From: Alphaproteobacteria bacterium
GTDB taxonomy: Bacteria > Pseudomonadota > Alphaproteobacteria > RF32 > CAG-239
Reading direction: 5' to 3'
DNA length: 64,000 bases
Assembly: GCA_900769705.1 (NCBI GenBank)
Contig: CAAGHP010000016.1
Coordinates: 13,210-77,209, forward strand
Part shown: in pieces, positions 3,012 to 63,893 of the stretch
How positions within the stretch are numbered: position 1 is the first letter of the stretch
Layout: each line of letters starts with the position of its first letter
Made by a program: the position numbers and the translations under genes
Notes under the pieces: model-generated
Told to the model about the DNA's origin: nothing
Database searches by the model: none
Seen by the model: only the letters and a program-made list of their open reading frames with translations

Positions 3012-5720
3012 ATGAAAAAACTATTAACTTATATAATTTTTTTAATTTTTGTTTTCAAGAGCTTTGCCGCTTATTCTGCTGAACCGCAGTTACCTGATGA
3101 CTTTAAAGGGTTGAATATGCGCGAGCGGCTGGCTGAACTTGCTGATGATGAAAGAGCCGAGCTTCCTTTGCTGCAAAGAATTTTGATTATGTATGAAATC
3201 GGAAATTATTTTAATAATAAGTATCCGAATGATGAAGTTTATGATGAAGATTTTGATGAAAAGTTGAAACCTTTTTTCCCAAACGCCGATGAATATCAGC
3301 TGCGTAAATACACAAATTTGCTGCGCACCGGTATAACCGTATATCGGCTGGGGCGTTTTGTGTATAACAAATATGTAACGCAAAAGCTGGTGCCGGCAGC
3401 TTATCGGCAAGTGCATTCCGAAAGTGATTTTGACCATCCAGACGAGGTTAAGTATCAGGAGGCTCCGACCGGAGAATTTATAAAAGTTTATAATTTCAAA
3501 AAATTTTTGACCTATAGCCATAATCCTGAAGAGCGGAAAGCAATTGAAGATTATAAAAAACTTCAGACTTCAAAAGATGATGTTTATGCTCAGTTTGAAT
3601 ATGCTTTGACGCATATCGAATGGAAAAAACTGCTGCTGTACGGGGAAAAATATAAGAATCCTTTGCTTTCGGATTTTGGAGTTGGAGAATTTGAGGAAGG
3701 TTTGGATGTCAGAGTGAGACTGCTGTCTGACGCCACTACTATTAACGGACAGAAAGAGTTTTATGCAGGACTGCAAGTCAATACGGAAAATAATAAGTTT
3801 GTATTGGCCAATAATTTGGCAAGTGATATGCAAAAGCCTCGGATAGATTTGCAAAAATCCAAAAATTTGGAAAGCTATCAGGTTTTGTATCCGGCACCGC
3901 AGAATTCTGTTTCTTTTCCGTTTGCTTACAAATATTTCGGCAATTTTCTCATTCCGATAAAAGTAACGGTAAAAAATCCGGAAGAGCCTCTGCTGCTGAA
4001 TGCTAAAGTAAATATGACGGTATGCGACGGAGCTTTGGCCTGTTTGGAACAAAGTTTTGAGCCGAAACTTATTGTTTTGACCGGAAAGGATTTTTCGTTT
4101 ACCAACGGTTATCAAAATTTCTTTCAGCAAAACATAAATATGCTGCCGAATAACGAATCGGAAAAGCTTAAATTGGAAAAATTTGTGGTTGATAAAGATG
4201 CTGACGGCGAATCTTTGCGGCTGGAATTTGAGTTGAACGGCGATATGGAAAGTTTTAATATTTTTATTGAAGACACAGACGGATATAATTTATTTTCGGT
4301 TCCGTTTATCAGTATTCAGGATAATAAAATTTTTGTCCGTTTTGAGCCTCTGAATAAGCATGCAAAACTGGAAAATACCGAGTATATAATCACAACCGTG
4401 CTGAACGGTTATGAGGCTTACCGTACAACCAGACTGGTGGCGCAAGCAGCATTGTTTGACACCGAAACGGCCTCTTTGAGCTTGGGACTGCTGTTGCTTG
4501 CAGTTTTGGGCGGTTTTATTCTTAATTTTATGCCGTGTGTATTTCCGGTTTTGTCGCTTAAAATCATCAGTTTGAGCCGAGCGCAGTCAATGCAGCAAAA
4601 ACGTCTGAAAAAATCGCTTTTTATAACGGTATGCGGCATTTTCAGTGGATTTACAATTTTGATTGTGCTGTTGCTGGCGGCAAAGTTTGCCGGATATTCT
4701 TTAGGCTGGGGCATGCAATATCAAAATATGACATTTTTAGTTATAATGTCGTTTGCTTTGGCTGGTTTTATGCTGATTTTACCAAGACTGCAAAGTTCAA
4801 GGCTGCAAAATATCAGTGTTTCGCAAGAAAAAAAACTTGGCTTTTTAATAGGTAATCTGATTGTGTTGCTGTCTACGCCGTGTACAGGACCATATCTGGC
4901 GACAGCTGTAGGTTTTGCTCTGGGTGGCAGCTATTCCGATATTATCCAGATAATGTATGCTGTGGCTTTGGGCTTGAGTATTCCGTATCTGCTAGCTTTG
5001 ACGATAAATAATCCGGAAACTTTGCTGCCAAAGCCCGGAAGCTGGCTGAATGTGCTGCAGAGTTGCATGCGCTTGATGCTGTTTTTGACTATTTGCTGGT
5101 TTGCTGTGCTGATTTATAATCAAACTGATTCTAATTGCGTGTTGATTTTGGCTGTATTTTTGCTGATATTTTGCGGAGTATTTGTCTTATATCGCCGTTT
5201 TACGGATTATTTAGATGGAGTTTTTGATGAAAGCGTAACGCTGGAAGTTATTGAGCGTCTGCGCAAAATCAGCCGAATAGCAATTTGCGGCTTATTTGCG
5301 GTTTTGGTTACCATAATGTCGTTTTATGCCGAAAATTCGCATCAGCATAATTTGCTTGAAAATGCCGTAACAAGGCAAACATTTTTAGATAAAAAAATGA
5401 TTGCCGAAAAGCTGGGAGCAGGGCGTTCAGTACTGTTGGAGATTGGAGCTGATTGGTGCTTGACCTGCCATTATAACGGCGTGATGACGCTGACGGATAA
5501 AAATTTAAAAATTTGGAATGAAATCTATAATATGGACTTTGTTAAAGTCGATTGGACCAATTATAATAAAGAGGTTTTGGATTTTATGGCTAAATACGGT
5601 CGCAAAGGATTGCCTTTTTATATTCTGTATACGCCGCTGATGCGCGACGGTCTGGTGTTGCCGGAGATTTTTACAAGCCGAGAGTTGGAAAATATTTTGC
5701 AGACATCGGCGCTGCGATAA
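3012..5720 (+). CDS. DsbD-family thiol:disulfide interchange protein with a long N-terminal periplasmic extension
   Basis: Start reassigned to 'MKKLLTYIIF' (signal peptide). Periplasmic Cys pair 'CDGALAC'; multi-TM core with 'MPCVFPVLSLK' and 'TPCTGP'; C-terminal thioredoxin-like 'WCLTC' CxxC. The track ORF's first 73 aa are a spurious extension. Confidence 0.6.
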   Translation: MKKLLTYIIFLIFVFKSFAAYSAEPQLPDDFKGLNMRERLAELADDERAELPLLQRILIMYEIGNYFNNKYPNDEVYDEDFDEKLKPFFPNADEYQLRKYTNLLRTGITVYRLGRFVYNKYVTQKLVPAAYRQVHSESDFDHPDEVKYQEAPTGEFIKVYNFKKFLTYSHNPEERKAIEDYKKLQTSKDDVYAQFEYALTHIEWKKLLLYGEKYKNPLLSDFGVGEFEEGLDVRVRLLSDATTINGQKEFYAGLQVNTENNKFVLANNLASDMQKPRIDLQKSKNLESYQVLYPAPQNSVSFPFAYKYFGNFLIPIKVTVKNPEEPLLLNAKVNMTVCDGALACLEQSFEPKLIVLTGKDFSFTNGYQNFFQQNINMLPNNESEKLKLEKFVVDKDADGESLRLEFELNGDMESFNIFIEDTDGYNLFSVPFISIQDNKIFVRFEPLNKHAKLENTEYIITTVLNGYEAYRTTRLVAQAALFDTETASLSLGLLLLAVLGGFILNFMPCVFPVLSLKIISLSRAQSMQQKRLKKSLFITVCGIFSGFTILIVLLLAAKFAGYSLGWGMQYQNMTFLVIMSFALAGFMLILPRLQSSRLQNISVSQEKKLGFLIGNLIVLLSTPCTGPYLATAVGFALGGSYSDIIQIMYAVALGLSIPYLLALTINNPETLLPKPGSWLNVLQSCMRLMLFLTICWFAVLIYNQTDSNCVLILAVFLLIFCGVFVLYRRFTDYLDGVFDESVTLEVIERLRKISRIAICGLFAVLVTIMSFYAENSHQHNLLENAVTRQTFLDKKMIAEKLGAGRSVLLEIGADWCLTCHYNGVMTLTDKNLKIWNEIYNMDFVKVDWTNYNKEVLDFMAKYGRKGLPFYILYTPLMRDGLVLPEIFTSRELENILQTSALR

Positions 5721-18052: not shown

Positions 18053-18318
18053 AATTATAAAAATTTAAACAAAATTATACAAAATACGATTTTGAATATA
18101 GCTATTTTACGCAATTAGTCAAGTAATATTCCCTATCAGATAGAAATAATTATCCTGAAATCTGTTTTTAAAGCAGATTACATAATAACGGCGGCAATAG
18201 CTCTCAATCATAATAAATTAAGCAAATAACCGGCTTTGTAACTTAGACTAAAGCAAAAATATCTTTACAAAAAATCTTTTTCCGAATACTATCATTTTGA
18301 AAATGCAATAGCATTTTT

Positions 18319-18497
18319 GGGCGTGAGAACCCTTTTAGACCTAGTCGCCAAGCATAAGCGACTTTAAATTGCTATATGCCGATTTCTGCATTGTGCGGAT
18401 GTCGGCTAAATAAGGCTATGAGCTGAATAAGCCGAGCCGTTTAGGTCTATACGGTTTCTCAACATCCGCCCGCTTTTTAACAGCGGGTTTTGTTTTT
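18319..18497 (+). promoter_or_regulatory. conserved structured 5' leader element, copy A, ending in an intrinsic-terminator hairpin directly upstream of the prepilin-like gene
   Basis: 179 nt. Shares the blocks 'tatgccgatttc', 'ggatgtcggctaaataaggcta', 'gctgaataagccgagccgttt' and 'aacatccgcccgct..agcgggttttgttttt' with the copies at 40918-41097 and 52933-53112. The terminator stem is cccgct/agcggg plus a U-run. Confidence 0.45.
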
Positions 18498-18528
18498 ATG
18501 TATAACAAATTAAACGGAGTTAATAAAT

Positions 18529-19185
18529 ATGTATAAAAATTTTGAAACAGGGCGCTCTATGATAGAAATGCTTGGCGTACTGGCAATTGTCGGTGTTCTT
18601 TCGGTCGGGGGAATCGCCGGTTATTCCAAAGCGATGGAACAATGGAAGATAAATAAAATTTTAAATGAATATAGTTATTTGATTTATGGTTTAATGGAGC
18701 ATTTATCCGACTATAAAAAACTAACCACAGCCAACTCAGGAGATGCCTCCAGTATTGGTTTGGGAGAAGCTATTATGGCCGCAGGGATTGTACCGCAGAC
18801 TTGGACTAAGGGAAATAGAGGTCCGCGTCAGCTTTTCGATTCAGATGGCAATACTGTAAATATTTTTTCACGCAGCCAAAGACTGGTCGTTGACTTATAT
18901 ATAGGAACTCAATACATAAATGATGATGGTAAAAGTGTGTCGGCAAATTTCTCTGCAGGATTATGCCGCGAATTGTTTTTAAACTTAGCCAAGCCGATTG
19001 CCGGTACTTTACATTGGGCCAGACTATACCGCAGCAACGAAACATCTCCGGTTTTGTTTTGGGGAAACAACACATGCAACGGAGCCGATAGAAAATGTCT
19101 GAACAGTATAACTTTATCAGAAATTGACGCTGCCTGTAAATTATGTATGAAAGATGACGTCTGTTGCATTGGATTAGAATTTTAA
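18529..19185 (+). CDS. prepilin-like protein (class III signal peptide-like N-terminus, Cys-rich C-terminus), paralog 1
   Basis: Leader 'MYKNFETG' then 'RSMIEMLGVLAIVGVLSVGGIAGYS' (Glu at +5 after Gly); C-terminal 'C..KCL..ITLS.I..C..C...C' motif shared with 3 paralogs. Confidence 0.5.
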   Translation: MYKNFETGRSMIEMLGVLAIVGVLSVGGIAGYSKAMEQWKINKILNEYSYLIYGLMEHLSDYKKLTTANSGDASSIGLGEAIMAAGIVPQTWTKGNRGPRQLFDSDGNTVNIFSRSQRLVVDLYIGTQYINDDGKSVSANFSAGLCRELFLNLAKPIAGTLHWARLYRSNETSPVLFWGNNTCNGADRKCLNSITLSEIDAACKLCMKDDVCCIGLEF

Positions 19186-31259: not shown

Positions 31260-31611
31260 TCTGGGTTTGTTTAAAGAGGGGGTGCCCTATTACACGTCCC
31301 GTTCCCTCTGAAAAGTTAATAATATTAAAAATAATTTCAAATATAACTATTTTATAGCTTATTTATAGACAAAAGTCAAGGAGAGTTTTTGAAATATTTT
31401 GGCAAAACTTAGCCCTTTACTTTTTTCAAGATGTTTGTTAGTTTAGCAAACAGATGGGCAATAGTCTGTCTGGGGTGTGGTAGCCTCTTCAGTATACGTC
31501 TGCAGTATCAGACGATAAATAATACCTTCTGGCTAAAGGGCTGGAAGGTAGCAGAATGTGCTATAAGCTAATATGCTACACTATTTTATACTGAATAGCT
31601 TACCAACTTCC

Positions 31612-31636
31612 AGCTGTCTCGCCGACAGCTTTTTTG
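31612..31636 (+). terminator. terminator-like hairpin + T-run ~30 nt upstream of the start codon of prepilin-like paralog 2
   Basis: 'gctgtc-tcgcc-gacagc' followed by 'ttttttg'. Confidence 0.4.
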
Positions 31637-31665
31637 TTGTAATTCCAAAATGATAGGAAGTTGTT

Positions 31666-32466
31666 ATGATATTAAAAAATTTGAAAAATTGTTTGGTCTT
31701 TCGTCTGTTCTCTTTCATTCTCAACTTCATGCTTGCGTGCGAGCATAGCGAACTACTGCAAACATTTAGGAATGTAATGTCAATATTATTGAAGCGGATG
31801 TACAATCCTGTATCCTCTGCGAATGAGCTGACGCTCAAAGCAAAGGATGATAAAAATAGGGTGTTGCAAATTGGTCGTTCAATGATAGAAATGCTCGGCG
31901 TGCTGGCTATCATCGCTGTACTGAGTGTCGGCGGAATAGCAGGATATTCAAAAGCCATGGAAATGTATAAAATCAATAAAACATTGGAGCATTATAACTA
32001 TTTAGTTTTGGGAATGCTTGACTACGTTAGAGAAACTAAAAATTTGGCAGAACAAACAAATACAGGTATGACAATGATTGCCGAAGCAGCTGGGCTTATT
32101 CCGGCAACATGGCAAAAGGAAAACAACTTTAATCTAAGAGATGACATGGAAAACATTGTGCAGATTTTTGCTAACAAAACACATCTTTCTATTGATTATA
32201 TTTTCCAAAATTCTGAAAAACACTCAATAACAGATAAATTATGCAATAATTTGTTCAATAACACATTAAAACCGTTAAGCAACAGTATTCAGGTTATTTA
32301 TGTTACAATAGCCAATAAGATAAATTTTGCTATTTATTATGGTAATACAACCTGTGATGCAGCCAAATCAAAAAAATGTCTCAGAGATGTAGAATTAAGC
32401 GATATAAGAGATTCCTGTAACTTTTGTGCCGAGCAAAAATTTTGTTCTATAGCTGTAAAGTTTTAA
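31666..32466 (+). CDS. prepilin-like protein, paralog 2, with ~70-aa N-terminal extension before the 'GRSMIEML' hydrophobic segment
   Basis: 'MILKNLKN...ACEHSEL...RMYNPVSSANELTLKAKDDKNRVLQIG|RSMIEMLGVLAIIAVLSVGGIAGYS'; C-terminal Cys motif 'C..KCL...LS.I...C..C....C'. Confidence 0.5.
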   Translation: MILKNLKNCLVFRLFSFILNFMLACEHSELLQTFRNVMSILLKRMYNPVSSANELTLKAKDDKNRVLQIGRSMIEMLGVLAIIAVLSVGGIAGYSKAMEMYKINKTLEHYNYLVLGMLDYVRETKNLAEQTNTGMTMIAEAAGLIPATWQKENNFNLRDDMENIVQIFANKTHLSIDYIFQNSEKHSITDKLCNNLFNNTLKPLSNSIQVIYVTIANKINFAIYYGNTTCDAAKSKKCLRDVELSDIRDSCNFCAEQKFCSIAVKF

Positions 32467-40012: not shown

Positions 40013-40891
40013 TTATTCCATTTCAACTGTAACTGAGCAGCTTTCGGTTGCGCCTGTACATTTTTTGCAAACTTCATTGATTTGCTGAGGGGTAATGCTT
40101 GTTAAACACTGTTTATTAGAACTCTTGCAATATTTGTCGCCGTACCAATAATTTGCGGAGTCATTATTACCTTTGCCGGAGCGCCATACACCGGTAAAGG
40201 TAATAAAGCTGTGCAAGGGCGCAAAAACATTAGCCATGATTTCTTCACAGAATTTAGCAGAAAATGCCGGAGTTGTGGCAGCTCCGTCTGCGTCATAGTT
40301 TGCACCGCCTATTCCTATGCTGAATACGACTCTGTTCCAGCGGGAAAATAAAGAGCTGTGGTTGCCGTAAGCATCTAAAAAAGATGTGTTGTGATATGCG
40401 GCGGCGTTTTGGTCTATAGTCCAATTATCAGGGACTAATCCTAAGGCTTGTATGGTGTCAGCTATGCCGTATACATCGCCTCTGGAATTTAGTTTTTTAA
40501 AGTCTGAAAGATGTTCTACTAACCCCTGAACAAGCAGGTTATATTCTCCGATTGCCTTGGTTAGTTTAAATTTTTCCATGGCTTTGGAATATCCGGCAAT
40601 ACCGCCGACACTCAGCACAGCGATTATTGACAGAACGCCCAGCATCTCAATCATGGAACGGCCAAGTTGCAACACACTCCTATTGTCATCCTTGGCTTTG
40701 AGCGTCAGCTCATTCGCCGAGGATCCAGGATGGTACATCCGATTCAATGGTATTGCCTTTATATTCCTGGATTCTCGCGATAGTTCGCTATGCTCACACG
40801 CAAGAATGACGTTGCGAGAGAAGGCGAAAAAACGAGAGATATTACTATTTCCTTCTGTAAATTTATCGTTGCTTTTCAAATTCTTATACAT
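40013..40891 (-). CDS. prepilin-like protein, paralog 3, with long N-terminal extension
   Basis: Start reassigned to 'MYKNLKSND', with RBS 'GGAG' 9 nt upstream, the same context as paralogs 1 and 4. '...RMYHPGSSANELTLKAKDDNRSVLQLG|RSMIEMLGVLSIIAVLSVGGIAGYS'; C-terminal Cys motif. Confidence 0.5.
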   Translation of the reverse strand: MYKNLKSNDKFTEGNSNISRFFAFSRNVILACEHSELSRESRNIKAIPLNRMYHPGSSANELTLKAKDDNRSVLQLGRSMIEMLGVLSIIAVLSVGGIAGYSKAMEKFKLTKAIGEYNLLVQGLVEHLSDFKKLNSRGDVYGIADTIQALGLVPDNWTIDQNAAAYHNTSFLDAYGNHSSLFSRWNRVVFSIGIGGANYDADGAATTPAFSAKFCEEIMANVFAPLHSFITFTGVWRSGKGNNDSANYWYGDKYCKSSNKQCLTSITPQQINEVCKKCTGATESCSVTVEME

Positions 40892-40917
40892 ATTTTCTAA
40901 CTCCGAAATTGTTACAT

Positions 40918-41097
40918 AAAAACAAAACCCGCTGTACAAAAGCGGGCGGATGTTAGTAAACCGTATATATGCAAACGGCTCGGCTTATTCAGCCATATAG
41001 CCTTATTTAGCCGACATCCGTCCAACGGAAATCGGCATAAAAAATTTAAGTCGTTTATGCTCAAGCGACCGCATATATAAAGGGTTACTACGCCCTG
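40918..41097 (-). promoter_or_regulatory. conserved structured 5' leader element, copy B, with terminator hairpin, upstream of prepilin-like paralog 3
   Basis: Reverse complement aligns block-for-block with 18319-18497 and 52933-53112. Terminator 'cccgct-tttgtac-agcggg' plus 'ttttgttttt'. Confidence 0.45.
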
Positions 41098-41197
41098 AAA
41101 GCACTATTGCACTTTCACATTTTAATTTAGCTGAGACGTATTGAAAAGTAAAGCTAAAAAAACACCCCTGATAAAAAATCAGAGGCGTTTTTTTTGA

Positions 41198-52246: not shown

Positions 52247-52903
52247 CTACAGGATAATCGTCAAGGCGCATCTTTTTGTTTTATCACAAGAGGAACACAT
52301 TGATTTCATTTTAGATAAAGTCATTGTGTTCAAACACGGACGACCGGTACTGCAAAAAGTGTCACCGTAGTAATACCCATTGCCGCCGGGCATTAAAATT
52401 CCTCTTATGGTATAATGAAGTGGCACCGCGATTTTATCCAAAACTTCAAAACATAAATTTCCGTTAAAGTTAGCTGCGATTTTTTCACCTTTGTCATTTT
52501 CCGTCAACCCGCCGAATATAAAGTCAATAATAATCCCCGATTCCTCTGGACTGGCATATCCGTACGCATTGCTGTACTCTCTGTAAAACGTACCAATAAA
52601 ATTTCCATAATTATCCTGTATATATTGAGATGAAATTTTTTGCCAAGTGTTGGGTATTAAATTTAAAGAAATCAACATATCAGACAAAAAAACTTGACCT
52701 TTTAGCTGCTCTTGCAAATTTTGTCTGTATTCCAACAGCCCGAAAATTAAATTATTATAATCGGTTATCAGTTTATTTATCTTGTACTTTTCCATAGCTT
52801 TTGAATATCCGGCGATACCACCTACACTAAGTACTGCGATAATCGCCAGAACGCCCAACATCTCAATCATACTGCGCCCGTTTTCTATAAATTTTTTGTA
52901 CAT
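52247..52903 (-). CDS. prepilin-like protein, paralog 4
   Basis: 'MYKKFIENG|RSMIEMLGVLAIIAVLSVGGIAGYSKAMEKYKINK'; C-terminal 'CSTGRPCLNTMTLSKMKSMCSSCDKTKRC'. Confidence 0.5.
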   Translation of the reverse strand: MYKKFIENGRSMIEMLGVLAIIAVLSVGGIAGYSKAMEKYKINKLITDYNNLIFGLLEYRQNLQEQLKGQVFLSDMLISLNLIPNTWQKISSQYIQDNYGNFIGTFYREYSNAYGYASPEESGIIIDFIFGGLTENDKGEKIAANFNGNLCFEVLDKIAVPLHYTIRGILMPGGNGYYYGDTFCSTGRPCLNTMTLSKMKSMCSSCDKTKRCALTIIL

Positions 52904-52932
52904 ATTTCTAACTCCGTTTATTTTGTTACACT

Positions 52933-53112
52933 AAAAACAAAACCCGCTGTTTTAAGCGGGCGGATGTTAGCAAACCGTATCAGTATAAACGGCTCGGCTT
53001 ATTCAGCGCTTAGCCTTATTTAGCCGACATCCGTCCAACGGAAATCGGCATAACAAATTTTAAGTCGTTTATGCAAAAACGACTATACTGATAAAGGGTT
53101 GCTACACCCTAA
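52933..53112 (-). promoter_or_regulatory. conserved structured 5' leader element, copy C, with terminator hairpin, upstream of prepilin-like paralog 4
   Basis: Aligns with copies A and B. Terminator 'cccgct-taaaac-agcggg' plus 'ttttgttttt'. Internal hairpin 'agtcgttt-ttgcat-aaacgact'. Confidence 0.45.
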
Positions 53113-53271
53113 AAGCATTATCGTGCTTTCAGCAATCAGTTTAACTAAACAAACAAAAAATGTAAAGCTTAAAATTGTAATGCTCTATAAAACATCCACG
53201 CCGTTATTTTTCTATTTTAAACGGTATTAACTTTTATCAGAAAAGGTAACAAAGCAATTTTATATCGCCGG

Positions 53272-57229: not shown

Positions 57230-57305
<76 letters not shown>

Positions 57306-58754: not shown

Positions 58755-61700
58755 TTATATGAACTGGTCGTAAATTTTCAAGGCTAACTTATTTATACAT
58801 TTTTCAATGAATGTTATATCCTTACCTTGCTTCACTTTCTTGTGTGCTTGTTTTGATAAATTTGCTAATCTTCTGTGGAACTTATTTTTCTTATCATATT
58901 TATCCAATTTAATCGGCAAATCTGTTTTATAAGAACGTGTATCTGAAGATCCTTTTATATAAGATGTAACAATTTCAGAATTCAGTATAGCACATATATA
59001 ATGAGCTTCATCTTCCTCAATAAAATTATTATTTAAATCTTGAGAAATAGAACAAGCATGATCCAATAAAATAGGAGTTGTTTTACCAATAATTGTATTA
59101 ATCGTAGAGACAACACAGGCCAGCCATTTAGTATTATTTCTAAATACAACTCTATATGGAGCAAAGGAATAGTCACCTACACGTGTTAAACTATAAAATT
59201 CTCCCTTATTCCCTTGCACCTTAGTGTTATAAGATGTCTTATTAAAATGCGATTTGTTAGCTTCATAATAAGATAGTAAAAGAGGACTTTCTTTTTGCAA
59301 AACATTTTTAACTATAGGTATTTTTCGGTTTTCTTTTTTATAAGGAAAAGGTGCAAAAAATTGTAAATCTTTTAAACCAAATTTAATGATATCAGGGCCT
59401 TCAATAACAGGATGAATATATTTTCTTTCTAATAGAGTAGTAATTTTGGCTATTTTCTTCTCACTTTTAGAATTTTGATAATTTTCTACAAGGATATTAT
59501 TTCCACGTATATCTTTTATCTCAAACAATAGTAATTCTTTCGGATATAATCCCAAACCAACTCTTCCTTTATAATGACATTCTCCTGGTATATTTTTTAA
59601 GATTTCAATTTCTTTCTTTTCTTCAGTGAAAGTGAAATTATTAAATATCTTAGTATTTTGAAAACAATATAAATTTTCTTCATTTAAACGAGATAATGCT
59701 TCCGAATAGCTTAAATTATATGTGTCTTTATTAATAGTCATTTTATTTTTTAATTTCATCTTTACTGCAATCGTTTCGGATAAATACTCATTAGTCTTTT
59801 TTAAATAATAGCTCATAAATTTCTCGGAAACAGGGTCAAAAGGCTTTCCAGCCAAACTCCAATCAAATAATTTATCAAACTTTAAAGGCACACCATCTGT
59901 TTGGCATAGATTTCTGAAACCGGTATAAGACTGTTGGAATAGCATAGATTTTGGCATTAAAAATGCAAGTGTTCCTTTTTCTTTAAGCCAATTATTTGCA
60001 ACAACGTTTGTTATTAACGCACAAATATTTAAATTGATACCACCTGTGAAATTATCACCTGAAAACAAATGTTTATCAATACATATCTTCTTTAAAGTTT
60101 CTTTATATTTCTCAGGGAGATATTTCCAATCAACCCAAGGTGGATTACCCACAATAAAATCAAATCTATCAAATGTAGCAATTTTTAAGAAACCAATAAT
60201 AATTCTTACCCAAATTCTATCCCAATTTTGTTTTTCAAGCCAAATGAGTGCATCTGAAAACTGAGATAAATGTTCTAAAACTAAATTTTTTCTCTCTTTT
60301 GAAGGTAGTAAGTCTGTTAATATATTTACTAGAGCACCTTTATCTTGATTGATTACAGCATTTTCTATGCCCACAATCTTATTAATTATATTTTTGTCTT
60401 TTTTTATTAAACTGACAGGTAAGATAAAATTTAAATCACCTTTATTTGTGTATATTGTATATTTTACCAATTCTATATTTTCTTCTATTATTATTTGTGG
60501 AATAAAGGCACTATCTCCTAAGTAGACAGGAATTTCTATTTTTTGTGTAAAGTCAGTATTAATGAAAGGTGCAATGGCAATAAAATAATTTACACGACAT
60601 GTTAGAATTGCTAAGGGATTTACGTCAACAGCTTTTACACGTCTTAAAATATCATCAAGAGTAACGTTATTTTCATTTTGTAATATATTATCTATCATTT
60701 GCAATACAAATGTTCCTGATCCTGCACATGGATCTAAACCTGACCATCCATTAGGTTTATCTGCGTGTTCAATAACATGTCTAGCCAACCAAGATGGAGT
60801 ATAGTATTCTCCCAGAGAATGCCTTACTTCAGAAGGTATTATTGACTGGTATAAATCGATAAATAAATCATGGACATTGTTCGTAGCAAAAAGATATTCA
60901 TTTGAACTATATTCAGTAAGTTTATAAATGACATCTAATACAGCTTTAAATATATCGTTATTCCAAGCATCTTCATAAACATACCAAGAAAAAAAGTCAC
61001 CTTCTAATAAATTATTCAGACCAATTTGCTTAAATATTTCTCCATTTTCTATGTAATTCAATCTAACTCTTAAACCCTCAGATTCTAAGGATAGTAAATC
61101 TTGAATCTTTAATGAAGATGTGCCGAAGAATATTTCTGCTACTTTATAATAAGCAATTAATTTTATTATAATAGTGTATGCAGTATGTAATGCAAATAAA
61201 CCTCTTTGTGGATCAATAACACTCCCACAAGAAAAACATCCTTGTATGGCTTTATTCCTTGCTTTGATTGGTTTCATATTGTTTGTATCGTTACTATTTG
61301 CTAACTTAAATAAGTGTTCCCATTCTGTATACAACATAAAAGTTCTTTCAGAAGGCTTTTCCAAACATTTATATAAAGCATTGAGTAAATTTTGTGTAAC
61401 ATTAGATGTGGATTCAATAGCAAAATCCTGTAATAAATTTTGAGAAGATAATTCTCTCTTATCGATTGAAATGATAAGGCATATAATTTTCTTTAGTACA
61501 TTTTTATCAATATCAAATATAGGACTTTCTATAAATTTATCATTTTCTTTATTAACAAATATACATTTACGACCATCTATTAAAATTCCGACATATTTAG
61601 ATTCTTCTTGTTTTTCTTTTTCAGCAGCTAAAGTAATGTATTTTTTTGTTTGTATAAGATAATTATCAAGATTATCAAGAATATCTTTTTTATATTCAAA

Positions 61701-61985
61701 AATAATATTGTTGAATTTACTGTCAATTCGTCTGTTGAAATATTTTCCCGATAAACTTTTTTCTTTTAGTGACAGCTCACGTATTGGAGAATATTGTATT
61801 CCATAGTATGATAACGCTGTTTTAAGGCAATCCTCAATTTTACAAGCAATTGTTTCTTCAGAATTAGCTTGAGCTGTTTCATTTCTTAAATTTGTAGAAA
61901 TACACTCTAGTAATTTGGAATAATCCTTCGAATTTAAAAGGGCTTTATTTATTTTTGTTTTGATATCTTGATAAATGTTTGGCAT
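58755..61985 (-). CDS. single-chain type IIG (MmeI-like) restriction-modification enzyme: N-terminal PD-ExK nuclease + gamma-class N6-adenine methyltransferase + C-terminal target-recognition region
   Basis: 1076 aa. N-terminal 'RRIDSKFNNIIFEYKK' (D..ExK). MTase motif I 'LDPCAGSGTF'; motif IV 'FIVGNPPWVDW'. ~440-aa C-terminal region. Confidence 0.7.
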   Translation of the reverse strand: MPNIYQDIKTKINKALLNSKDYSKLLECISTNLRNETAQANSEETIACKIEDCLKTALSYYGIQYSPIRELSLKEKSLSGKYFNRRIDSKFNNIIFEYKKDILDNLDNYLIQTKKYITLAAEKEKQEESKYVGILIDGRKCIFVNKENDKFIESPIFDIDKNVLKKIICLIISIDKRELSSQNLLQDFAIESTSNVTQNLLNALYKCLEKPSERTFMLYTEWEHLFKLANSNDTNNMKPIKARNKAIQGCFSCGSVIDPQRGLFALHTAYTIIIKLIAYYKVAEIFFGTSSLKIQDLLSLESEGLRVRLNYIENGEIFKQIGLNNLLEGDFFSWYVYEDAWNNDIFKAVLDVIYKLTEYSSNEYLFATNNVHDLFIDLYQSIIPSEVRHSLGEYYTPSWLARHVIEHADKPNGWSGLDPCAGSGTFVLQMIDNILQNENNVTLDDILRRVKAVDVNPLAILTCRVNYFIAIAPFINTDFTQKIEIPVYLGDSAFIPQIIIEENIELVKYTIYTNKGDLNFILPVSLIKKDKNIINKIVGIENAVINQDKGALVNILTDLLPSKERKNLVLEHLSQFSDALIWLEKQNWDRIWVRIIIGFLKIATFDRFDFIVGNPPWVDWKYLPEKYKETLKKICIDKHLFSGDNFTGGINLNICALITNVVANNWLKEKGTLAFLMPKSMLFQQSYTGFRNLCQTDGVPLKFDKLFDWSLAGKPFDPVSEKFMSYYLKKTNEYLSETIAVKMKLKNKMTINKDTYNLSYSEALSRLNEENLYCFQNTKIFNNFTFTEEKKEIEILKNIPGECHYKGRVGLGLYPKELLLFEIKDIRGNNILVENYQNSKSEKKIAKITTLLERKYIHPVIEGPDIIKFGLKDLQFFAPFPYKKENRKIPIVKNVLQKESPLLLSYYEANKSHFNKTSYNTKVQGNKGEFYSLTRVGDYSFAPYRVVFRNNTKWLACVVSTINTIIGKTTPILLDHACSISQDLNNNFIEEDEAHYICAILNSEIVTSYIKGSSDTRSYKTDLPIKLDKYDKKNKFHRRLANLSKQAHKKVKQGKDITFIEKCINKLALKIYDQFI

Positions 61986-62168: not shown

Positions 62169-63893
62169 ATGAGAATTAATAGATTAACAATCCAGAATTA
62201 TCGGTCTTTTGCTGATGAAGTTGCAATAGAGTTTCCAAACATTGCTAAACCAATAGCTATAATCGGGCATAATAATGCTGGAAAGTCAAACCTGATAGAT
62301 GCTTTACTGATGGTTATGGGAAAAAAGAGCGTATATGGTAATAATTTTTCTAAAAACGATTTTTTCAATCATAATATTAACGAGGATATAATAATAAGTG
62401 CCAAAATTACGGATGATGATTGCCTAATACAAGCCGATGCATTTAATAAGACACAGACCATAGATAGTATTAAATTAATTATAAGTTGTGAGGACGGTTT
62501 TTGCGATAGCAATCATATTTTGTGTGATAATAATGGTAAACAAATAAGATTATCTCAATCTATACCACAATCAAAGAAAAATGATTATTCTGATGAAGAA
62601 AAAAAGGCTTTCAAAGAACGCAGAACAGATGGACTTTTATATTTTACGAAAATCAAAAATAAGATACCGCTATATTTTATTGATCCAACAAATATTCAAG
62701 ATGAATTATCTCCAAAAAAGAACAGTATACTTGCTGATGTGATGAAAAAAGTTAAAGTAAGTTTTGAAAAAGATAGATTTCCTAAAGATTTTCCTAAAGA
62801 AACATGGCAAGGAAAAACGAGAAAAGACATATTTAACAACTATCTAAAATTTGTTGAAAATAATGTGCTTAAAACAAAAGAGTTAGATGAGTTGGTTGAG
62901 TGTATAACAGAAGAGATAATGTCTCAACTTGGATTAGATTCAGATAACTTTGATTTAAGTCTAAGTATTCCTGATATAGATGTTTTCTATAAAAATTTAG
63001 ACTTTTTGCTAAAAGATAATGACGACCCTCAAAAACCGAAGTTACCAATATGTAATTATGGTCGAGGATTTTCATTGCTGTTTATTGTTGCATTATTAAA
63101 AATATTGTCAAAGTCAAAGGATGGTGGAAAAATATTTGTTATCGAAGAACCAGAAACATTTTTACACGAGCATTATCAAGAATATTTCTATCAAGTGTTA
63201 TGTGAGTTAGCGAAAAATAATCAAGTAATATACACCACTCATTCAAAAAAGTTTATTGATTTATTTAATCCTAAAACAATAATTAAGCTTGATAATCAAG
63301 GATATAAACATACAGAAGTTATTCAAAATAAAGACGAATTTATAACATATCCGAATGACTATGCAAAATATATTACTTCCATAGAACCTAATTTGGGTAA
63401 TCTTATTTTTTCAGATAAAGTGCTTATAGTAGAAGGTTCTCATGATATTTTAGCTTATAAAATGGCATTTAGTGATGTTAATTTTGGGTTAAATAATATA
63501 TCAATAGTAGCCGCTTTTGGTAAAGATGGAATAGTGAATCTTATTAATTTATGTAAGTTGTATAAAATTGATTATTTTGCTGTGCATGATTGGGATATTG
63601 AAAGAGAAGATATTGATGTTTCTATTGAGTCAGATAGTAGTTCCGATTATGCAGCATTAACTAAAGAAGAAAAGGCTCAATATACCAAAAATCATAAGTT
63701 ATTGACTGTTGCAGGTACTAATAAAATACATCAAAATAAAAAACGTTTAGAAGAAGTCCTTGGTATTCCTCAAGCAGATAAAGGGTGTGAAGCAATTTAT
63801 GAAAAACTAAAAGATTTATCCAGAGAAGAAATACAAAAACAATATCCTAAGCTGATTGATGACAACTTATTAAATTTTTTGGAGTTTAAATAA
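62169..63893 (+). CDS. OLD-family ATP-dependent nuclease (ABC-type ATPase + C-terminal Toprim)
   Basis: Walker A 'GHNNAGKSNLIDAL'; Walker B 'IFVIEEPETFLHE'; H-loop 'IYTTHS'; Toprim 'VLIVEGSHDILAY' and 'AVHDWDIE' (DxD). Confidence 0.7.
   Translation: MRINRLTIQNYRSFADEVAIEFPNIAKPIAIIGHNNAGKSNLIDALLMVMGKKSVYGNNFSKNDFFNHNINEDIIISAKITDDDCLIQADAFNKTQTIDSIKLIISCEDGFCDSNHILCDNNGKQIRLSQSIPQSKKNDYSDEEKKAFKERRTDGLLYFTKIKNKIPLYFIDPTNIQDELSPKKNSILADVMKKVKVSFEKDRFPKDFPKETWQGKTRKDIFNNYLKFVENNVLKTKELDELVECITEEIMSQLGLDSDNFDLSLSIPDIDVFYKNLDFLLKDNDDPQKPKLPICNYGRGFSLLFIVALLKILSKSKDGGKIFVIEEPETFLHEHYQEYFYQVLCELAKNNQVIYTTHSKKFIDLFNPKTIIKLDNQGYKHTEVIQNKDEFITYPNDYAKYITSIEPNLGNLIFSDKVLIVEGSHDILAYKMAFSDVNFGLNNISIVAAFGKDGIVNLINLCKLYKIDYFAVHDWDIEREDIDVSIESDSSSDYAALTKEEKAQYTKNHKLLTVAGTNKIHQNKKRLEEVLGIPQADKGCEAIYEKLKDLSREEIQKQYPKLIDDNLLNFLEFK

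Follow-up and report, generated by a model that had tools for sequence, protein, structure and literature searches.

A structured leader RNA with two mutually exclusive folds, and a probable transcription attenuator, upstream of cell-envelope genes in gut Alphaproteobacteria

What is the role of a segment of about 200 nucleotides (nt) that recurs directly before pilin-like genes in an otherwise ordinary piece of bacterial chromosome? The question is raised by a 64,000-nt stretch (hereafter, the window) of contig CAAGHP010000016.1, from an alphaproteobacterium of the GTDB lineage RF32; CAG-239, in which this segment lies among genes for FtsK, MdoG, PheST, ProRS, pyruvate kinase, RecJ, a ParC/GyrA-like protein, RpoD and Dxs. 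The original prediction, made from the letters of the window, was that the segment is a leader RNA of the riboswitch or attenuator kind. This reading stands in part: a structured leader on the strand of the gene, with its own promoter, terminator and alternative pairings, is indeed present, whereas conditional read-through is inferred only from that anatomy. From the comparison of homologous sequences, the view that the leader is a previously uncatalogued structured RNA of the attenuator/riboswitch kind is strongly supported. On the basis of the modelled pairings, we further consider it probable that the leader acts in cis as a transcription attenuator with two mutually exclusive folds, the choice between which would be conditional on an effector.

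The leader between its promoter and its terminator

Copy A, a type 1 leader, gives a covariance-model match of 183.8 bits at 18295–18503 (+), within which the leader RNA is placed at 18296–18498 (+), its 5′ end being approximate and its 3′ end being the terminator U-tract. Copies B and C lie on the minus strand at 40917–41152 (promoter ~41152–41124, leader RNA ~41120–40917; 186.1 bits) and 52932–53166 (promoter ~53166–53138, leader RNA ~53134–52932; 194.3 bits), respectively. These three copies are present where they had been reported; however, the count was incomplete, since tblastn with the three downstream proteins and the covariance model revealed a fourth, divergent copy, D. This type 2 copy occupies 31416–31646 (+) together with its promoter, the RNA running from 31448 to about 31640 (166.3 bits at 31448–31646). 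Copies A to D are the sole matches to the covariance model within the window. A 21-nt core, GGATGTCGGCTAAATAAGGCT, has three exact occurrences there vs. zero expected, and copies A, B and C show a mean column identity of 85% in an alignment of about 280 columns. All three are predicted to fold far more stably than shuffled sequences, with z = −5.68 for copy A, −4.6 for copy B and −7.4 for copy C. The proteins encoded downstream of the leaders are only 36–40% identical to one another, and the promoter spacer and similar neutral positions are fully randomised between copies, which indicates that the leader identity of about 85% reflects selection rather than recent duplication.

The promoter of copy A was located by a promoter scan as TTTACA-17 nt-TACTAT at 18264–18292 (+), and the boxes of copy D are TTTACT at 31416–31421 (+) and TAGTTT at 31439–31444 (+). 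The consensus among homologues is CTTTAC[AT]-N17-TAAAAT, i.e., a sigma-70-type promoter, which is found at the same spacing upstream of nearly all of the 49 homologues described below. Sequence similarity begins at the −35 box, and the −10 box ends a few bases before the 5′-terminal hairpin H0. This position of the promoter directly before H0 suggests an RNA about 205 nt long (~18296–18498 in copy A). The boundaries given in the original prediction were incomplete at the 5′ end: the transcript starts about 23 nt before the position stated there, with a hairpin that directly follows the promoter. Between the leader promoter and the ATG, the promoter scan found no second promoter-like site on the same strand.

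At the 3′ end of copy A, a terminator scan identified GCCCGCU-UUUUAAC-AGCGGGU followed by UUUGUUUUU at 18468–18498 (+), with the stem and loop at 18468–18488. The 7-bp stem contains five G-C pairs and is directly followed, in the DNA, by the U-tract TTTGTTTTT, as expected of an intrinsic (rho-independent) terminator. Copies A, B and C each end in an intrinsic terminator ahead of a ribosome-binding site (RBS) and a pilin-like start codon; the gap from U-tract to ATG ranges over 26–31 nt (31 nt in copy A, 26 nt in copy B and 29 nt in copy C), and GGAG lies ahead of the start codon.

Covarying helices and two pseudoknots

Homologues were collected in two ways. The first set was gathered via the protein: a protein-centred scan of species genomes gave 80 loci from a handful of gut metagenome-assembled genomes (MAGs), which contributed many loci each and more than 20 in one case, and iterated nhmmer searches on these loci yielded 56 leaders, 49 of them unique and full-length; 48 strong model hits from the loci were aligned. 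In all 49 of these pilin-linked leaders, an RBS and the start of a gene of the same family follow within about 30 nt, and the leaders sort into three sequence versions, types 1–3. The second set was gathered via the RNA, by a pattern scan of metagenome contigs which gave 81 model matches, 58 of them distinct; these were not used in model building, and some of their pilin-linked members are close to sequences of the first set. The structure was derived with RNAalifold and a per-sequence helix search, and comprises ten helices across about 106 distinct homologues. The covariance model contains the nested helices H0, P1, P2, P3, P5 and the terminator only, leaving out r2:r3, P6 and S1. A chimeric leader in which P2 and P1 are broken (loci L006/L007, see below) was excluded from the alignment. 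As a control, partner strands were slid by 1–3 columns.

Both sets support the structure. In the pilin-linked set (n = 48), 97.1% of cells are paired vs. 34–42% in the slid control, both sides change in 44 of 57 pairs, and the covariation score is 0.649 vs. 0.247 for shuffled alignments. The RNA-centred set (n = 58) has 95.0% of cells paired vs. 33–41%, both sides changing in 39 of 57 pairs, and a score of 0.395 vs. 0.132. None of 500 shuffles reached the observed score in either set (0/500 each), so the compensatory change claimed from the three copies is borne out. The four helices named in the original prediction hold across the ~106 homologues as well: UCGGCU/AGCCGA is P5a, AGUCG../..CGACU is P3, the hairpin around ccgatttc is the inner part of P4, and GGAUGU/ACAUCC is r2:r3. 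However, the strongest covariation is found in two long-range helices, P2 and P1, both of which were absent from that prediction.

In the following, positions refer to copy A (+), and paired percentages are given for the pilin-linked and the RNA-centred set, in this order. The RNA opens with H0 (18299–18318), GAAAAUGC-AAUA-GCAUUUUU, with 98% and 92.5% of cells paired and both sides changing in 7/8 and 8/8 pairs. It is followed by the S1 hairpin (GGG/CCC, 18319–18332), the loop of which contains P1a (UGAGAA, 18324–18329), which pairs with P1b (UUCUCA, 18456–18461) to form P1. P1 is 100% and 98.5% paired with 3–4 pair types per position, and its 3′ strand lies just 5′ of an invariant AAC. S1 occurs as AGGG:CCCU, GGGG:CCUC, GAGG:CCUC and CGGG:CCCG, and has 4 bp in 92/98 sequences; the linker from S1a to P1a is 2 nt in 88/98, and that from P1a to S1b is 0 nt in 95/98. 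In the pilin-linked set S1 is 88% paired, the shortfall being due to a one-column register shift where P1a is 7 nt long. Judged from these sequences, the geometry of S1 and P1 is that of a textbook H-type pseudoknot.

The second long-range helix, P2, joins P2a (18336–18344) to P2b (18441–18449) within the P6 loop. It is 7–15 bp long and wholly variable in sequence (TAGACCTA/TAGGTCTA in copy A, ATATATGC/GCATATAT in copy B, ATCAGTAT/ATACTGAT in copy C), and it is 95% paired, with both sides changing in 7/7 scored pairs and 4–6 pair types at each. By the same kind of sequence evidence, P2 together with P6 makes a second predicted H-type pseudoknot. The P3 hairpin, AGUCGC...GCGACU, spans 18343–18363 (96% and 98% paired). 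A three-way-junction domain at 18395–18469, taken from the RNAalifold consensus, comprises r2:r3, P5a, P5b and P6. Its closing helix r2:r3 (18395–18402 with 18462–18469) is 100% and 99.7% paired, P5a (18402–18407 with 18430–18435) 98.9% and 98.4%, and P6 (18436–18440 with 18451–18455) 96.9% and 99.6%; r2:r3 and P6, which lie outside the model, are as cleanly paired as the model helices. The terminator stem is paired in 99% and 95%, with compensatory changes. Conserved unpaired nucleotides are the invariant AAC before r3, a GGA.G core, and the symmetric AAUA/AAUA internal loop of P5.

The two strands of this P5 loop (18408–18413 and 18425–18429) are near-identical, being (G/A)AAUAA / GAAUAA in type 1 and AAAUAU / UAAUAU in type 2. 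Set antiparallel, they give a core of two A-U pairs with A-A and G-A mismatches on either side. The loop is pseudo-symmetric and is the most conserved unpaired feature of the leader; from its sequence, it is a possible candidate for a binding site.

Could the repeats instead act at the level of DNA, as a miniature inverted-repeat transposable element (MITE), a mobile promoter cassette, an invertible segment or a recombination site? The element is multi-copy, dispersed among housekeeping genes and found before unrelated genes, it contains inverted repeats (P1 and P2), and one chimeric copy (L006/L007) and tandem copies (L091, L193) exist, all of which would suit such an element. However, its orientation and its position before the start codon are constant in all 49 pilin-linked and nearly all RNA-centred copies, there are no terminal inverted repeats or target duplications, and the −35 box marks the start of homology. 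Although the inverted repeats vary in sequence from copy to copy, their complementarity is kept and G-U pairs are tolerated, a signature of RNA. The DNA-level explanation is therefore largely refuted, and we regard it as very improbable; the earlier statement that the element is neither a 3′ untranslated region (UTR) nor a MITE is likewise supported. Two specific forms were rejected separately: an invertible segment flanked by P1/P2, as the repeats are not the same from one copy to another and none of ~130 matches shows the internal segment inverted, and a MITE or phage origin, as terminal repeats are missing and the 4 pattern matches on viral contigs were not confirmed by the model.

Unusual arrangements of the leader were observed at a few loci. 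Tandem leaders occur at L091:483–948 (−) and L193:141–606 (+), where a first terminator without a gene is followed by a second promoter, leader and lipoprotein gene. In the chimeric leader (L006:2767–2977 / L007), the 5′ half is like that of L008 (P2a ACGAAAAC) and the 3′ half is that of copy A (P2b UAGGUCUA); because the halves are mismatched, P2 and P1 are unable to pair, and the leader is possibly inactive. Since it is present in two independent assemblies, the chimera is probably a real recombinant of paralogues. The model also detects distant relatives, types 4 and 5. Distant leader classes scoring 23–50 bits stand before pilin-like genes at L061:4695–4972, L087:1469–1746, L066:10294–10460 (−) and L049:1674–1856 (−); they have large insertions and appear to keep the S1/P1 pseudoknot (S1 = GAUG:CAUC in L049), r2/r3 and the terminator. 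The leader superfamily is wider than the 106 sequences analysed.

Two competing folds and the proposed attenuator

Two strands of the junction have a choice of partner. P5a forms when strand b (UCGGCU) takes c (AGCCGA) as its partner; the alternative partner of b is strand a (GCCGA), which lies upstream. Likewise, strand r2 (CGGAUG) pairs either with r3 (CAUCCG) or with the upstream strand r1. Pairing of a-r1 with r2-b gives P4, a helix of about 11 bp which is mutually exclusive with the three-way junction; in copy A, this hairpin lies at 18378–18406 (+), with GCCGAUUUCUGCA as the decoy a-r1 and UGCGGAUGUCGGC as r2-b. The per-sequence helix search found P4 in every sequence, in three different sequence versions. 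The strands (a-r1 / r2-b / c + r3) are GCCGAYUUCYG / CGGAUGUCGGC / AGCCGA + ACAUCCG in type 1, UACCUUCUGGC / GCUGGAAGGUAGC / UGCUAC + CUUCCAGC in type 2, and CUAUCUUUCUGC / GCAGGAAGGUAG / CUAC + CUUCCUGC in type 3, so that all alternative partners co-vary between the types. The decoy a-r1 is a copy of c + r3, from which it differs only by changes of a Watson-Crick pair to G-U or by a single U-U mismatch. P4 is 86% paired vs. 24–52% in the slid control, and within type 1 the decoy strand varies only between C and U opposite G.

Over the segment from a to r3, the two folds are nearly isoenergetic, with a mean difference of −2.1 kcal/mol. When growing transcripts were folded without pseudoknots, P4 formed at once (97%) and persisted (84%) as the minimum-free-energy structure, P1 and P2 closed the domain, and the terminator formed in every case. 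In these pseudoknot-free folds, r2:r3, P5a, P6 and S1 never formed. As these are among the best-covarying helices, they must belong to a second, functional state. Among type 2 and type 3 leaders, the helix r2:r3 always overlaps the terminator stem, by 3–4 of its 7–8 nt; in copy D, r2:r3 (GGCUGGAAG:CUUCCAGCU) takes 4/7 nt of the 5′ arm of the terminator. In type 1 the overlap is 1–3 nt, i.e., 2 nt in copy A, where the first 2 nt of the terminator are common to r3, and 1 nt in copies B and C. Owing to this overlap, the junction, once formed, is expected to interfere with termination. In types 2 and 3, moreover, r1, r2, r3 with the terminator 5′ arm, and the terminator 3′ arm change jointly, and the four strands appear from their sequences to be arranged as in a classic 1-2-3-4 attenuator.

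We thus propose the following mechanism. Each copy would be a self-contained module in which a promoter is followed by the ~205-nt leader, the intrinsic terminator, the RBS and the gene. During transcription, r2-b would first pair with the decoy a-r1 to form P4, which would serve as an anti-antiterminator; c and r3 would be left free, the full terminator would form, and a stable RNA of about 200 nt would be released with the gene off, which would be the default (fold I). In fold II, r2-b would instead pair with c (P5a) and r3 (r2:r3), closing the three-way junction with P6, and this junction would be braced by the two H-type pseudoknots, one between the S1 loop and the junction strand (P1) and the other between the 5′ strand and the P6 loop (P2). 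As r3 reaches 1–4 nt into the 5′ arm of the terminator, termination would be weakened or blocked and the polymerase would read into the gene. Candidates for the selector of fold II are a small signalling ligand, a protein and a second RNA. The intricacy of the fold and the regulon of surface-protein genes hint at a small ligand; a protein or an RNA is equally possible.

Several points weigh against this attenuator. That termination is conditional, that the switch has the proposed direction and that an effector exists are all inferred from the anatomy of the leader. Within type 1, the covariation of P4 is no better than in shuffles, such that P4 rests on conserved complementarity and on its three between-type versions. 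Most type 1 copies, B and C included, overlap the terminator by 1 nt, and this is a G-U pair; a direct disruption of the terminator in type 1 is not obvious from the sequence and is the weakest link. That P1 and P2 coexist with the junction fold as pseudoknots is a presumption of the model. Nine sequences with a P2 of 12–15 bp do have longer U-rich linkers; however, the overall correlation of linker length with P2 length is not significant as measured, and this trend was dropped as proof that P2 and P6 coexist. In addition, the closest known RNA, sRNA-Xcc1, has been described as a stand-alone small RNA (sRNA), and the surface-protein genes downstream give no metabolic clue to a ligand.

The slight covariation of P4 within type 1 would also fit a constitutive structured 5′ UTR that stabilises the mRNA or guides its processing, with P4 as a transient folding intermediate, and 5′ hairpins and compact folds are known to protect transcripts. 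This explanation does not account for a strong terminator between the structure and the gene, nor for a conserved decoy whose three versions co-vary and whose pairing is set slightly below the strength of its competitors, and we judge it quite improbable.

The attenuator proposed here can be compared with the PyrR-controlled pyr leaders and the trp-type attenuator, which are leaders with a terminator, an antiterminator and an anti-antiterminator. The four-strand logic is the same, with P4 as pairing 1:2, r2:r3 + P5a as 2:3 and the terminator as 3:4; the strands co-vary here, and the fold formed first permits termination. In contrast to those systems, the antiterminator here would be a doubly pseudoknotted three-way junction instead of a simple hairpin, and the PyrR model (RF00515) reaches only 20.7 bits vs. 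a threshold of 54 (E = 0.87). Attenuation by a leader peptide was rejected because the AUG/GUG of strand a has no Shine-Dalgarno sequence, its frame is broken by varying loop lengths, and it is absent in type 2; across the leader region, small open reading frames were found on the opposite strand only. A pairing of the 5′ GGGCG with CGCCC of the terminator arm as an antiterminator, possible in type 1, was likewise discarded, as it has no counterpart in types 2 and 3.

Specialised antitermination factors such as RfaH (with its ops element), UpxY and LoaP are recruited by leader elements of operons for surface structures. Such leaders resemble the present one in their position before genes for pili, surface proteins and polysaccharides and in having terminators to overcome. 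On inspection, only a partial ops-like motif (GGTAGC) was seen in type 2, and CsrA-type GGA sites likewise showed only partial likeness; neither is conserved across types, and both candidates were rejected.

A sharper form of the attenuator, rather than its opposite, is a small-molecule riboswitch in which the junction is an aptamer (e.g., for a cyclic dinucleotide) that switches on surface genes. The elaborate and compact fold with its conserved unpaired nucleotides (AAC, GGA.G and the AAUA/AAUA loop), the predicted architecture of an ON switch with a terminator, and the many copies before diverse envelope genes all speak for it. Riboswitches for cyclic di-GMP (c-di-GMP) have a similar gene distribution, upstream of pilus or adhesin genes. 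ON switches and c-di-GMP riboswitches are alike with the leader in having a conserved domain whose closing helix competes, or in the leader would compete, with a terminator and in occurring in many copies per genome before diverse envelope and adhesion genes; the leader differs from them by its extra decoy hairpin and by the lack of an Rfam match. No riboswitch family of Rfam was matched even at E up to 10, the gene context gives no hint of the ligand, and the three-way pairing constraints alone explain much of the sequence conservation. We regard a small-molecule riboswitch as possible, with the doubts clearly the stronger.

A search of the whole window against Rfam 15 at the gathering threshold returned a tRNA only, and no family for the leader. 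At permissive thresholds (E up to 10), sRNA-Xcc1 (RF02221) alone is matched consistently, and all else is noise. Against a threshold of 53 bits, copy A scores 27.3 bits and 16/16 metagenomic copies score 29.3–40.2 bits, with E down to 0.0013, whereas copy D (type 2) is not matched by this model. The novelty claimed earlier is thus upheld at the family threshold and tempered by this steady, sub-threshold likeness of the core. All 87 positions of the sRNA-Xcc1 model align to the r2...r3 domain of the leader, in register with r2:r3, P5 and P6. Both RNAs have a closing helix whose final strand is followed by U's, a hairpin that resembles P5 and has AAUA-rich internal loops, a further hairpin with GCCGU...ACGGU, and a junction strand rich in U; sRNA-Xcc1 likewise lies in the same orientation directly upstream of a protein gene (symE or ORF6N) and can be multi-copy. 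In Xanthomonas, Northern blotting detected sRNA-Xcc1 as an 88-nt RNA whose 5′ end is at the closing helix. Gammaproteobacteria carry it in integron cassettes, islands and phages, and it was described as trans-acting.

However, neither the 95-nt 5′ domain of the leader (H0, S1/P1a, P2a, P3 and the decoy) nor its separate terminator hairpin is present in sRNA-Xcc1. Unlike this ~88-nt RNA, the leader has its promoter about 100 nt upstream of r2 and a 5′ domain that pairs with the junction via P1 and P2. The context is also different, being chromosomal in gut Alphaproteobacteria, before surface-protein genes and with housekeeping neighbours (Dxs, RpoD, PheST, ProRS and pyruvate kinase). Since score threshold, transcript boundaries and genomic context all fail to agree, the leader is not a member of sRNA-Xcc1; its junction core is, on sequence, a probable distant relative.

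This likeness raises the possibility that the element is itself a stand-alone, trans-acting sRNA like sRNA-Xcc1, with a constitutive terminator and with the gene expressed by incidental read-through. Its own promoter, 5′ hairpin and strong terminator with a long U-tract are the typical anatomy of a stable sRNA, the core resembles sRNA-Xcc1, and the default fold terminates. Against this, the downstream genes have no other promoter-like site and start at a fixed distance of about 25–35 nt, and a simple sRNA would have no use for a conserved decoy strand, for alternative pairings or for their overlap with the terminator. Dozens of near-identical, gene-tied paralogous sRNA genes per genome would be unusual, and even sRNA-Xcc1 has a gene (symE or ORF6N) immediately downstream. 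An sRNA of this kind is therefore unlikely.

Genes behind the leader and neighbouring features

The original prediction tied the leader to prepilin-like genes. The protein-centred searches suggested such a pilin-specific element, which was overturned by the RNA-centred scan. Among 66 distinct metagenomic loci with enough sequence to judge the downstream gene, 29 have signal-peptide proteins, mainly autotransporters (PF03797), and 13 have lipobox lipoproteins, one of which carries a PEGA domain, whereas only 8–9 are pilin-like; the remainder include an Opa/outer-membrane beta-barrel protein, two EcoRI-type adenine methylases, a DXD glycosyltransferase and an integrase-like gene. The prepilin link as a specific one is thus not supported. 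These loci span 30–56% G+C, homologues of the PEGA lipoprotein come from named Alphaproteobacteria MAGs, and the position of the leader is fixed at about 25–35 nt before the start codon. As the downstream genes are mostly not pilins, the leader is a general module before cell-envelope genes of gut Alphaproteobacteria, of which the pilin association in the window is one case.

The putative sensor domain, doubly pseudoknotted, is unusual, and the presumed surface-protein regulon is wide. We raise, tentatively and as a proposal we hold to be more doubtful than not, a new riboswitch or factor-sensing class which would sense a signalling molecule and switch on the surface-protein repertoire gene by gene, with sRNA-Xcc1 as a minimal relative of its sensor. 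Under the same tentative proposal, the regulon in uncultured gut Alphaproteobacteria would comprise pilin-like proteins, autotransporters, Opa-like outer-membrane proteins, lipoproteins, glycosyltransferases and DNA methylases. If the leader works as the proposed attenuator, one RNA design would control much of the cell-surface repertoire in poorly known, uncultured bacteria of the human gut. Autotransporters, lipoproteins and outer-membrane proteins belong to this repertoire, as do the pilin-like paralogues, of which a genome has dozens. Genes of these kinds are subject to variable expression in pathogens. The leader, as a candidate orphan riboswitch, also offers a compact, strongly covarying target of about 200 nt with an explicit two-state model, and it may help to explain the function of sRNA-Xcc1, which in integrons and phages lies before toxin genes.

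Within the window, the leaders precede four pilin-like genes. Gene A (18529–19185, +) encodes 218 amino acids (aa), its translation starting MYKNFETG|RSMIEMLGVLAIVGVLSVGGIAGY..., and gene C (52247–52903, −) also encodes 218 aa. Gene B (40013–40891, −; 292 aa) has an in-frame N-terminal insertion, and gene D (31666–32466, +; 266 aa), found by tblastn with the three other proteins, has the same one. The protein has 7469 homologues, the few named ones coming from uncultured 'Alphaproteobacteria bacterium' MAGs; a Pfam search of the pilin-like proteins gave no match, and a literature search found nothing relevant on this family or on the leader RNA in gut Alphaproteobacteria.

The common insertion of genes D (31700–31860, +) and B (40686–40860, −) is about 190 nt (~65 aa) long and separates the start codon from the G|RSMIEML prepilin-type site (...LACEHSEL...SSANELTLKAKDD.NRVLQ). 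Its DNA is 82% identical between the two genes, whereas the remainder of the proteins is only ~39% identical. Many database homologues (230–380 aa) have similar N-terminal extensions made of short palindromic cassettes. This is reminiscent of the in-frame palindromic elements of Rickettsia, and the insertion may represent either another conserved nucleotide element or an in-frame insert that is mobile.

Other paralogues (L052, L065, L071, L075 and L082, also L039 and L045) are without this leader and start with ATGAAAAATAAGCT...AAAGGT and a (CT)7–9 tract. In L052, L065, L071, L075 and L082, the tract lies inside the N-terminal coding region, about 150–250 nt upstream of the GRSMIEML codons, and it is a candidate tract for phase variation by slipped-strand mispairing. 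A third, unrelated conserved leader was seen before further paralogues in L010, L021, L026, L027, L038, L053, L062 and L064, in the 300 nt upstream of position 5001 or its equivalent; its motif is ...GTGTGTAAAAATAACGGTCGTTTTTTTTACAC..AGGAGGAATAAGATGTTTAAG, and GTGTAAAAA.../...TTTTTTTACAC forms a terminator-like hairpin directly before the RBS. From these sequences, the pilin-like family seems to use several interchangeable leader modules that bear terminators.

The remaining features of the window concern its 3′ part. A tRNA gene (65 bits) lies at 57233–57305 (−), followed by a 1076-aa Eco57I-like N6-methylase/restriction fusion at 58755–61985 (−) and a 574-aa OLD-family AAA/TOPRIM nuclease-like protein at 62169–63893 (+). 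These tRNA-adjacent methylase/restriction and OLD-like genes may form a small defence island.

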